Sequence record: MG748547 | Reading direction: 5' to 3' (one strand) | Length of the DNA: 64,000 nt | From: Escherichia phage EP75 | Shown here: piece after piece, positions 52,733 to 55,131 of the stretch | How positions within the stretch are numbered: the stretch's first letter is position 1 | Layout: every line of letters begins with the position of its first letter | Notes under the pieces: model-generated | What the model was told of the DNA's origin: nothing | Databases searched by the model: none | What the model saw: the letters and a program-made list of their open reading frames with translations, nothing else | Translations under genes and position numbers: made by a program

Positions 52733-55131
52733 CAAAATTGGCGGGGTCTGAGGCTTTTCACCTCACCTGCTGGATTGGCCTCCAGCTGTTCTCTCTGGGG
52801 ACTCGCTGTCCGGACAGCTATCCCTTAAACTATCGCCCCATATTCAATTGCACCAGAGCATAATTACCGCTATACGACCACCCTCTCGGGCAGGTTGGTT
52901 CTGACCCAACGTCTCTCTGATGCGTTTTATTGTGTGCCCAATCAAGGACTGTCAACCTTTTATCCCGTTTGTGCATGATCAGTTCATGCATGCCTCTTGT
53001 GCGCCTCACGGCAACGCGCTTCTGTAGGTCATCGACTTGCACTGTAGTCTCACCACAGGCGTTTATTTTTCCAGGGCTTTCCACTTACAAGTCTTAACCA
53101 GATCGGGATACGGGCTTGTAAGATCGGATTGGACACAACTTTGATGGCTCTAGGACTAAAGATCCCGCGTCACCCATAGACTTGGTTTATAAAATCTAGA
53201 GCCATCAAAGTTGCAACCAATGTCGCAACTCGCACTTCAGCGTCTTCGTCTCGCTTCAGCACTTGTCCTCTACGTTCGGACCAAACGAGGCTGGCCGACA
53301 GAAACATAACACCACTCATCACTAGAGCGAGGATGTGGTTGATAGCCACGATGTTACGTCTCTGTCGTAGAGTGATCACACTTGTCAGGATGATCACTGT
53401 TTTGCGAACTTGAAAATACTGCGCCTGTCTCGGGTTTCCCCTTAGTTCGGCCTCTCATTGTTCGTCTGGTCAGGGAGCTACCCTTGATGACCAGCTTATT
53501 TTGAGATCTTCGCCAGCACCCACTAGTGTCTAGAATATGTAGGTGTCGAGGTCTGCAAGGCATTGCCCTATTTCATACAACGCTCTCTCAAGTGCGCAAA
53601 TCGAAGTTCTCTGGGCTTAACAGGTTCGACCCAACATGTTGTATATCGCCTAACTTGCTCATGGGACGGACACATCTGTGTACAGACCTTGAGGGTTAAA
53701 AGATATACCCAGAGAACTTCGATTTGCGTAGCCCTTCACTTGCCAAAGATCAGGGCTAATAACAAGACTTCGCTCACATCTTTGAGGACACTGCGCGGGA
53801 CTCGAACCCGCCATGAACATCTGGCGCCAAATGCTTCCACCTGTCAATGTCCTCAAAGATGTGGAGCCGTTTTAGGGAGTCGAACCCAAATGATTGGCCA
53901 GCGCTGACCTCACATCCCATCTGACTTAGGCAACCCACCTCTGCTACTCAGGAGCTTATCCCCTTTGGACAGTCAGATATAACGGCTTTGGGATTGGAGG
54001 AAGGACTCGAACCTTCTCATGTACGCTCCTGATTTCTCAGAAGTAGCCTGCTCCCATCGACCTATTAAGTACACGCTCCGCTCATTGTTCGGCGGGAGCT
54101 TATTAATCACACCCTCCCACCTATTGTTAGTGCGCCGAATTTTGTTATGAGGAATCGGAAGACCTCACTGACTTATAGGCTATTACGCCGCCATCAGAAC
54201 TTCGGAATCATTAGCAGTTATTTGCTTGGTCAGTTTCTAAAAACCCGCAAAGTCACGCACAACGAAAACGAAAACCTGTTTGAGTCCTAAACCTACCTGT
54301 CTTGGTCTCACATCGATATGAGTGGCCAGGACTCAAACAGCTTGCCGTTCAGTGAGTTAACTATACTTTGTAACCCGTTATTGATAAAACCTTTTATTTT
54401 GTTGGCGAGGGTGCGGAATCGAACCACACTTCTGAGCGCTACCCCGTGTCACCAATGCACCACCTCACCATCGATTTGCCGGAACTTACGCATCCGGCCT
54501 CGTCCTGTCGGTGTTCTTCTGAATCCGGGAAGATCAGCAGGAACTATGAATCAAGTTAATTCAACCAACAGGAATCCTCTTGTTGCCCTTTGACGCAACA
54601 TTATGAACCCTCTATGAAGACTCATAATGTTGTCGGCGTGATGGAGATTAGCGCCCCCGACCTCCCCTTATATGTTGGTGTCGACTTGCCAACAGGGTGC
54701 TCTCTGATTCTGAGCTAATCACGCTACAACAGGGAGTTTCGTTCTCCGACGGTCAAGTGCGTCCACTGACACCAGCGAGGTGGCTATTACGCCTCTATTC
54801 ACACAAGCCCCTGAGACTAGGGGTTAACTGGTTTTGGGCTGCAAACCCGACTCCCACTGTGTTATTTCCCTCATGTTTAATACTTTACCGCAGCCCAGCT
54901 AATTTGAAAAGTCCTCTCCCCTTTGAGCTACACTGCCCACAGCAGTGCGGACGAACCTTCACTCAAAACCGGATGCGCCGAAGTGGGCAACTGTTTACCG
55001 GACTGATCGGGTAGACCCAGGAGAGAGCAGGTAATCCCGATCAGGAGGATGAGGAGTAACATCATGTAAAACATAGTGTTCCCTCCCTTCCATGCAACTA
55101 ACTTTACTACAATTATTTATTGAATAAAGCG

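Follow-up and report, generated by a model that had tools for sequence, protein, structure and literature searches.

The tRNA-operon leader and its inverted repeat

The window analysed here is a stretch of 64,000 nucleotides from Escherichia phage EP75 (sequence record MG748547), a Kuttervirus of the family Ackermannviridae; the element in question is a perfect inverted repeat of 21 bp together with the 92 nt between its arms, and it is located in the leader of a tRNA operon. Across 53000-54500 the window shares 96.7% identity with Salmonella phage Mutine, and Escherichia phage ECML-4 shows 99.5% identity over the element. The surrounding 4 kb or so (51200-55130) are without any open reading frame (ORF) of at least 100 amino acids. 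Neighbours of the element are a protein of 189 amino acids (phrog_3788, a PHROG of unknown function without a Pfam domain), an ORF of 48 amino acids, a tail needle knob and the baseplate wedge protein gp6. On the minus strand, that is, the strand opposite to the one taken in an earlier sequence-only reading of this DNA, the element is located some 620 nt inside the untranslated leader of the operon, the parts of which are as follows.

54360-54387, minus strand: sigma-70-type promoter, TTATCA-16-TATAGT in the window and TTGTCA-16-TATAGT in relatives
53593-53730, minus strand: the element studied, closed by helix P1 (21-24 bp)
53708-53728, minus strand: 5′ strand of P1 (right arm of the sequence-only reading), 21 pairs, supported by covariation
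53595-53615, minus strand: 3′ strand of P1 (left arm of that reading); its last 6 nt (53595-53600) can pair instead with 53401-53406
P1 arms in RNA orientation, Kuttervirus: 5′ CGCAAAUCGAAGUUCUCUGGG, 3′ CCCAGAGAACUUCGAUUUGCG
P1 arms in RNA orientation, Taipeivirus: 5′ CACAAAUCGAAGUGCCUUGAC, 3′ GUCAGGGCACUUCGAUUUGUG
P1 arms in RNA orientation, Agtrevirus: 5′ CGCAAAGUAGAGUCCUCUGGAC, 3′ GUUCAGAGAACUCUACUUUGCG
53616-53707, minus strand: core enclosed by P1, 92 nt, with the motifs CUUAA(N)CC and GNCGAUA(N0-2)ACA(N2)AU(N3)GGG invariant across three genera
53670-53681, minus strand: apical hairpin P3, ACAC-AGAU-GUGU in the window (Kuttervirus)
53619-53640, minus strand: hairpin P4, AACA.GUU-GGGUCG-AAC.UGUU, with an invariant GGG in the loop; from the alignment and folds
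51918-52733, minus strand: genes for tRNA-Met, tRNA-Asn and tRNA-Tyr (ARAGORN and Rfam), downstream of the element and on the same strand
51482-51504, minus strand: strong intrinsic terminator ending the operon, an annotated terminator in Mutine and Maynard

The promoter is invariant in the alignment of the three genera, and sequence conservation sets in sharply there; no late promoter of the T4 type (TATAAATA) is found near the region.

The arms of the repeat, 53595-53615 (CGCAAATCGAAGTTCTCTGGG) and 53708-53728, are 21 nt each, 100% complementary and 92 nt apart. The sequence-only reading had recognised the perfect 21-bp repeat and its 92-nt core correctly (21 of 21 positions are complementary) and had placed both arms one base too low, at 53594-53614 and 53707-53727. 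It had further described a 6-bp pairing of CAAGTG with CACTTG outside the arms; both sequences are present (53589-53594 and 53737-53742), but an 8-nt bulge (53729-53736) parts CACTTG from the right arm, and the pairing is not conserved in Maynard-type Kutterviruses or in Agtrevirus. It employs the same CACUUG as helix X-Y, a helix described below, and is not conserved where X-Y is.

The repeat is far above chance. Its 21-mer has just two sites in the window, the arms themselves, where shuffles (n=100) lead one to expect 0; there is thus no copy in the window beyond the single element. First-order Markov simulations of 64 kb (n=100) yielded a mean of 0.05 exact inverted repeats with arms of at least 14 nt and a loop of at most 240 nt, the longest arm being 16 nt, and the window holds four by the same criteria, all of them within 52008-53863. 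Inverted repeats with arms of at least 16 nt within 300 nt also number four in the whole 64 kb, all inside 53128-54349. Compared with shuffles, the fold of the element has a z score of -6.2 to -8.6 on either strand.

By blastn the element is found in 231 phage records, at a single place in each; by comparison, the adjoining gene for the 189-amino-acid protein is found in 280 (tblastn of the phage collection). It is conserved at one locus in Kuttervirus, in Taipeivirus (phages of Klebsiella and Serratia) and in Agtrevirus or related Aglimvirinae (AV101, MK-13, EspM4VN, SKML-39, Ag3). A covariance model built from 12 sequences of the element detects a single site in each genome (110-148 bits) and, in the window, nothing beyond the element itself; Limestonevirus LIMEstone1 and Miltonvirus (Serratia phage 2050H1) are without a match. 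No similar DNA is present in 5,426 complete E. coli genomes or in 72,556 plasmids. When bacterial genomes and metagenomes were searched with a degenerate core pattern, none of the 240 loci among the matches listed had a flanking complementary arm; the pattern is too loose and its matches are due to chance, which means that absence of the element outside phages is not established by it. The 189-amino-acid protein was considered as a partner of the element and rejected, as it also occurs in Limestonevirus, which is without the element, and has no Pfam domain.

Covariation, core and strand

Base pairing is under selection in P1, in two small hairpins of the core and in the neighbouring domains. 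Over the 12 sequences P1 is 97.6% paired, with 9 of its 21 pairs altered on both sides; the covariation score was reached by none of 500 column shuffles, and sliding the partner by 1-3 columns lowers the paired fraction to 23-49%. Extending the set to 17 distinct sequences gives 97.7% of cells paired, again 9 of 21 pairs double-changed, and 51 doubly changed cells compared with 17.1 expected. One pair takes three Watson-Crick types (G-C, U-A and C-G). The length of the helix is 21-24 bp in Kuttervirus and 20-22 bp, with one mismatch or G.U pair, in Taipeivirus and Agtrevirus. The pairs that do not vary are grouped in three blocks (columns 3-8, 13-15 and 20-21), with freely covarying blocks between them.

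The core, judged by its conservation, is not a neutral spacer. Equivalents of P3 are UCUAC-AAA-GUGGA in Taipeivirus and UUCAC-AUG-GUGAA in Agtrevirus, in which a C-G pair is exchanged for U-A; the Kuttervirus hairpin is shifted in register by one. The stem of P4 is GUU/AAC in Kuttervirus, GUUG/CAAC in Taipeivirus and AUGA/UCAU in Agtrevirus. RNAalifold proposes in addition a long-range pairing of CCC with GGG within the core, which is invariant and hence untestable by covariation. The genera differ in the core by indels of 1, 5, 9 and 5 nt; therefore, there is no conserved reading frame. A protein-coding function of the element was rejected for the ORFs across it as well, which are short, overlapping, unconserved and broken by indels in relatives; a mini-ORF of six codons (AUG UUG GG..) is lost in AV101 and in locus L019, where AUG is changed to AUA. 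Equally discarded was a T-arm in the core, GGTTCGACC, which belongs to the plus strand and is unconserved in Taipeivirus or Agtrevirus. As the core is invariant in its motifs, a released RNA of about 90-130 nt is suggested to have an activity of its own.

The element does not stand alone. On the minus strand, and with G.U pairs allowed, six helices of 15-25 bp are found within about 1.2 kb: P1 and the following five.

54273-54343, minus strand: hairpin of 17-21 bp that comes first, directly after the promoter; its arms covary (GAGUCCU/AGGACUC versus GGGCAU/GUGCUC)
53773-53865, minus strand: hairpin H-C, 20 bp, arms CACAUCUUUGAGG... and ...CCUCAAAGAUGUG; encloses the T-arm-like GCGGG-UUCGAGU-CCCGC
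53585-53600 with 53401-53416, minus strand: helix X-Y, 15 bp, closing a domain of about 200 nt (53401-53600)
53296-53367, minus strand: 20-bp helix with five G.U pairs
53128-53221, minus strand: hairpin H-A, 25 bp, conserved in all genera examined and, in reduced form, in LIMEstone1

The same series of stems (17-25 bp) recurs in Taipeivirus and Agtrevirus. The region as a whole is a mosaic, in that genomes differ in the modules they have, lack or have exchanged, and the breakpoints fall at the helices.

To decide whether the pairing is one of RNA, strand-asymmetric evidence matters, because symmetric half-sites of a protein would covary too. The consensus fold of the element has -33.9 kcal/mol on the minus strand versus -26.9 kcal/mol on the plus strand. 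For the domain 53401-53600, 59 pairs are predicted on the minus strand, 17 of them with compensatory changes, at -64.2 kcal/mol, compared with 52 pairs at -43.0 kcal/mol and with A.C breaks on the plus strand. On the minus strand, the 20 bp of the helix at 53296-53367, five of them G.U pairs, are free of mismatches; the plus strand cannot form this helix. Since these neighbouring helices are strand-asymmetric, and since the orientations of promoter, terminator and tRNAs agree with them, an RNA of the minus strand is the economical reading, and it is highly probable that the element is a functional RNA structure on that strand.

The 3′ arm of P1 has a second possible partner. Its last 6 nt in Kuttervirus, or up to 10-14 nt in Taipeivirus and MK-13, plus the next 10 nt, pair with 53401-53416 about 170 nt downstream (helix X-Y), and the downstream segment follows the arm in sequence (CUUCGAUUUGUG/CACAAAAUGAAG in Taipeivirus, CUACUUUGCG/CGCAAAAUAG in MK-13). 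The outer third of P1 and helix X-Y are therefore mutually exclusive; a switch, a branch-migrating junction or a coaxial stack are all conceivable.

Possible roles of the element

The explanation we favour is that P1 is the closing helix of a structured non-coding RNA domain of about 135 nt in the tRNA-operon leader and fits a processing site of host RNase III; on balance this is probably the correct one. More tentative is the part of it according to which RNase III, or another factor specific for double-stranded RNA (dsRNA), acts on P1. About 22 bp of dsRNA fit into the dimer of this enzyme, which cuts intramolecular stems twice, in a staggered manner (PMC6212723); with its intramolecular helix of about 22 bp, P1 has the required length. 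The following course of events is proposed. The host-type sigma-70 promoter at 54360-54387 would drive an untranslated transcript of about 2.9 kb carrying, in this order, the long hairpins and tRNA-like domains (54343-53128), tRNA-Met, tRNA-Asn, tRNA-Tyr and the terminator at 51482-51504. Host RNase III would then cut at P1, which would serve as a processing stalk, and at its sister helices. Cleavage would free the enclosed RNA of about 90-130 nt, or part the leader domains from each other and from the tRNAs; rRNAs are freed from their operon transcripts in a comparable manner. The activity would be carried by the conserved core and not by the helix, and cleavage may be modulated by the alternative pairing of the 3′ arm with the segment 170 nt downstream. 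Uninterrupted helices of about 20 bp are rare in structured RNAs of bacteria because they are RNase III substrates; a role as processing stalk is favoured because there are six such helices in one untranslated transcript, each closing a module.

Several points weigh against this explanation. The sequences in which covariation was scored represent three clades only, so that the number of independent events is small, and 10 of the 21 pairs of P1 never vary and are hence silent on pairing. Within P1, the evidence from G.U versus A.C combinations is weak: about four independent events favour the minus strand and about two the plus strand, the former comprising U.G at 19-121 in Taipeivirus and, separately, in phage maane, U.G at 17-123 in one IMG/VR contig and G.U at 22-118 in Agtrevirus. 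Folds of the core from single sequences disagree between genera; the parts that are consistent are those reported here, that is, P1, P3 and P4. In three Taipeiviruses the second pair of P1 is a C.U mismatch and the matching pair of X-Y is U-A, and because the outer 6-14 nt of the 3′ arm have a conserved alternative partner, the full 21-bp P1 may not be the native state. Finally, LIMEstone1 keeps the promoter, a tRNA and the leader part 52736-53292, and the whole block 53293-54327 is absent; expression of a tRNA as such can thus do without the element, and the block that bears it is accessory.

The same RNA could also be used without being cut. As a decoy or sponge, the element and its sister hairpins would accumulate as a stable small RNA rich in dsRNA, which would bind and neutralise a host immune nuclease or sensor directed at dsRNA or tRNA, or RNase III itself, the helix being a binding platform and not a cleavage site. 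Invariant blocks of P1 pairs between covarying ones are what would be expected of a protein contact face; several neighbouring modules are tRNA-like; and the block is accessory cargo, absent from Limestonevirus and mosaic, which is typical of counter-defence genes. Moreover, the operon contains tRNA-Tyr and tRNA-Asn, both of which are targets of some anticodon nucleases. However, a perfect 21-bp duplex is expected to be cut by RNase III unless it is protected, and we know of no bacterial dsRNA-sensing defence of the relevant kind that is established in Enterobacteria, which counts against a decoy; such a role is unlikely. It is also rather improbable that the helices merely compact an untranslated leader of 1.6 kb and shield it from Rho-dependent termination and from RNase E or exonucleases, so that polymerase reaches the tRNAs, the core being inactive. 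A leader that is untranslated, densely structured and of a GC content of 0.49 (versus 0.43-0.46 in the flanks), with helices as its most obviously conserved features, would suit such a passive structure, but the single-stranded motifs of the core, invariant in three genera, would not; the neighbouring blocks are 85-95% identical versus about 75% for the flanking protein genes, far beyond the constraint on a passive spacer, and the Limestonevirus tRNA lies behind the same promoter without the block.

Two further explanations regard the repeat as DNA. Both had been offered in the sequence-only reading, as a protein-binding palindrome and as the terminal repeats of a miniature mobile element, next to a long RNA helix; it is the helix that has stood, with compensatory changes in 9 of 21 pairs across three genera, on the tRNA-operon strand, behind a conserved promoter and among covarying RNA domains. 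A DNA palindrome could consist of half-sites for a dimeric protein or could form a cruciform or hairpin signal in replication or packaging, its arms being kept by symmetric recognition or gene conversion. Covariation alone would permit this, the G.U evidence in P1 is weak, as said above, and several database records start inside hairpin H-A. However, half-sites of 21 bp that are 92 bp apart are unusual for a protein site, the intervening core is conserved and has covarying hairpins of its own, the flanking domains are strand-asymmetric RNA structures, and mismatches in the arms persist, hence there is no ongoing homogenisation. The minimum of the cumulative GC skew and a switch in gene orientation are located about 2.3 kb away; a replication origin at the element was considered and rejected because this minimum, at about 56 kb, coincides with the switch in the direction of transcription and not with the element. 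A DNA palindrome is, in sum, very improbable. Even more doubtful, to the point of being hardly tenable, is a non-autonomous mobile element that inserted into the tRNA region. The unit of 134 bp with perfect terminal inverted repeats of 21 bp would be of the appropriate kind; homology of Maynard-type phages with the window breaks off precisely where the right arm ends on its outer side (53729), and Agtreviruses have the element beside different flanks. Yet the window and every other genome with the element have it just once, invariably in this leader region and in synteny across genera, and no copy is found in the E. coli genomes and plasmids mentioned above. No target-site duplication is seen, as the flanks ...CTCTCAAGTG| and |TAGCCCTTCA (CAAGTG| and |TAGCCC) are without a shared direct repeat. 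The arms diverge by compensatory change, which speaks for a long vertical residence under selection for pairing, and recombination at conserved islands explains the breakpoints equally well.

Phages of the genera Kuttervirus, Taipeivirus and Agtrevirus are isolated very often, and the 1.2-1.6 kb between their baseplate and tRNA genes are left blank or are given small "hypothetical protein" calls. This stretch has dense, strongly conserved predicted RNA structure with at least three domains supported by covariation, an invariant host-type promoter and an unusual concentration of perfect helices of about 20 bp. Provided that the transcript exists, it would define one or more new RNA families and correct gene annotations, and with E. 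coli or Salmonella as hosts and with rnc (RNase III) mutants it would be a tractable system in which to learn what phages do with long dsRNA helices and tRNA-like modules. That the block is accessory and mosaic in its distribution hints at a part in host takeover or counter-defence.

Known RNAs and neighbouring modules

At gathering thresholds, the three tRNAs alone match Rfam. Over 51500-55500 and at E<=10, the element gives chance matches to microRNA precursors (MIR781, 24-25 bits versus a gathering score of 88), and weak matches to transfer-messenger RNA (tmRNA) and tRNA-Sec occur nearby. A tRNA as such was rejected for the element, as there is no match to tRNA or the tRNA clan over 53593-53730 even at E<=10; ARAGORN finds no tRNA or tmRNA in the hairpin region, neither in the window nor in 13 related loci. 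Nothing on the region was found in the literature on non-coding RNA, transcriptomes, inverted repeats or RNase III with tRNA clusters in Ackermannviridae, and the databases bear only one trace of the element: in phages heyday, dinky and bering its 21-nt arm carries an automatically set "repeat_region" feature. Small "hypothetical protein" calls lie across the hairpin region in several records, for example in Mutine (locus L001) at 3171-3350 and 3775-3939; they are probably spurious, because of the RNA structure and the frame-breaking indels. With no Rfam family or paper found, the element is best described, going by its sequence, as a candidate new RNA family of a known general kind, namely phage non-coding RNAs tied to tRNA clusters. 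Its dependence on long perfect helices and the mosaic of cassettes are unusual.

The processing stalks of RNase III in the spacers of rRNA operons and in the R sites of early phage T7 transcripts resemble the element in that the flanks of an embedded RNA form an intramolecular helix of about two turns in a long, polycistronic and largely untranslated transcript; the length of P1 fits the footprint of about 22 bp, and several helices follow in series. Unlike in these systems, the enclosed core of about 90 nt is neither rRNA nor mRNA. An internal loop and a single cut characterise the RNase III sites of T7; the duplex of P1 is uninterrupted. The species 1 and 2 RNAs of phage T4 are small stable RNAs of about 100-140 nt encoded in the phage tRNA transcription unit; they are matured by processing of the tRNA type and are not enclosed in 20-bp helices. 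The element is like them in being non-coding, encoded by a phage and, as predicted, co-transcribed with tRNA genes, a likeness of description. GOLLD and ROOL are large ornate RNAs often found in phages or prophages beside tRNA genes; the Ackermannviridae region shares with them that it is a large, multi-domain non-coding RNA supported by covariation, but it does not match either Rfam model at E<=10, is mosaic and cassette-like with no single fixed architecture, and is dominated by unusually long perfect helices.

A relation to bacterial Y RNAs was examined as well and rejected. Y RNAs of the YrlA type have a Ro-binding motif, GNCGAAN0-1G, in the stem and mimics of T- and D-arms (PMC4201824). 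Like YrlA and YrlB, the element would be an RNA of 80-130 nt with a long end-to-end stem closing a structured loop, tRNA-like modules are nearby, and the stem in Kuttervirus and Taipeivirus has AUCGAAG, which is close to the motif. However, A replaces the first G of the motif, Agtrevirus has AGUAGAG in its place, the core is without T- or D-loop consensus, no Ro60/TROVE gene is present within 4 kb of the element, and Rfam gives no match of the Y-RNA type.

A bolder analogy is with VA RNA I of adenovirus, a structured RNA of about 150 nt with helices of about 20 bp and a complex central domain, which is transcribed by RNA polymerase III and blocks PKR. The element and its sister hairpins (54343-53128) might, as its counterpart, be a cassette array of accessory phage RNAs that would be transcribed early by host polymerase, cut at the closing helices of about 20 bp and used as decoys or inhibitors of host enzymes of dsRNA- or tRNA-directed immunity or of RNA decay, the cassettes being swapped between genera at conserved helices. 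The analogy is one of function only, as VA RNA is eukaryotic-viral and has a known target, and we consider the idea quite unlikely.

Exchange of modules is best seen at H-C (53773-53865). Its arms (CACAUCUNNGAGG... and ...CCUCNNAGAUGUG) are conserved across the window and loci L003, L004, L005, L008, L009, L010 and L023, and the enclosed cores differ: 51 nt with the T-arm in the window, 91-96 nt in Maynard, MK-13 and K751, 83 nt with two hairpins of 7-nt loops in IME250 and EspM4VN, 48-50 nt in SKML-39 and EspM4VN, and 4 nt only in cp16. By sequence this looks like cassette exchange at a conserved helix. Next to it, at 53863-53984 (minus strand), lies a module that resembles a tRNA: its acceptor stem is GCCGUU/AACGGC, its T-arm GGG-UUCGACU-CCC, and N-CCA is encoded at its 3′ end. 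Eight genomes keep the CCA, the discriminator varies (U, C or A), and of 40 predicted pairs five covary. At about 125 nt the module is too long for a normal tRNA, and neither ARAGORN nor the Rfam tRNA model calls it.

Further upstream, at 54080-54270 (minus strand), a near-invariant block of about 190 nt is about 95% identical across genera, compared with about 75% for the flanking protein genes. It contains the hairpins GUGAGG...CCUCAU and GGCGGGAGGG...CUCCCGCC and has no conserved ORF; Rfam gives just a weak match to permuted tmRNA (E=0.17). The domain 53401-53600 has an invariant ACUAAGGGGAAACCCGAGACAGG with a GAAA tetraloop hairpin and no Rfam match; in Klebsiella phage May its closing helix is kept and the interior is cut to 28 nt. 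The motif AAUAAGCU...CCGAACAAUGAG(C/A)GG is repeated directly in two modules, at about 54078-54105 and about 53455-53505 (minus strand), which suggests that the modules may have arisen by duplication.

Directly upstream of the promoter, at 54400-54425 (minus strand), there is a piece resembling the 3′ half of a tRNA (GGTTCGATTCCGCACCCTCGCCA), which is called by no tRNA tool; the sequence upstream of the promoter is unconserved between genera. Between the ORF of 48 amino acids and the leader promoter, at 54596-54632 (minus strand), a hairpin of 17 bp with three G.U pairs and a loop of 3-4 nt (CAACAUUAUGAGUCUUC/GAGGGUUCAUAAUGUUG) is kept in every Kuttervirus, Taipeivirus and Agtrevirus locus examined. 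At the other end of the operon, a perfect inverted repeat of 14 nt (52008-52079, TCTACCGCCGCGTG and CACGCGGCGGTAGA, with a loop of 44 nt) lies directly upstream of tRNA-Tyr on the transcribed strand. The GenBank records of heyday (L002) and AV101 (L006) have their start or end precisely where the right arm of H-A begins (53196-53221; 53197-53198 in the window), which reflects either a shared convention for the record start or an assembly break at the inverted repeat. In some Kutterviruses, though not in the window, genes for HNH homing endonucleases lie beside tRNA-Met (2491-2946 in Mutine, L001; 1434-1847 in L003; SP1), and these insertions may be taken as another sign that the tRNA region is a hotspot of insertion.

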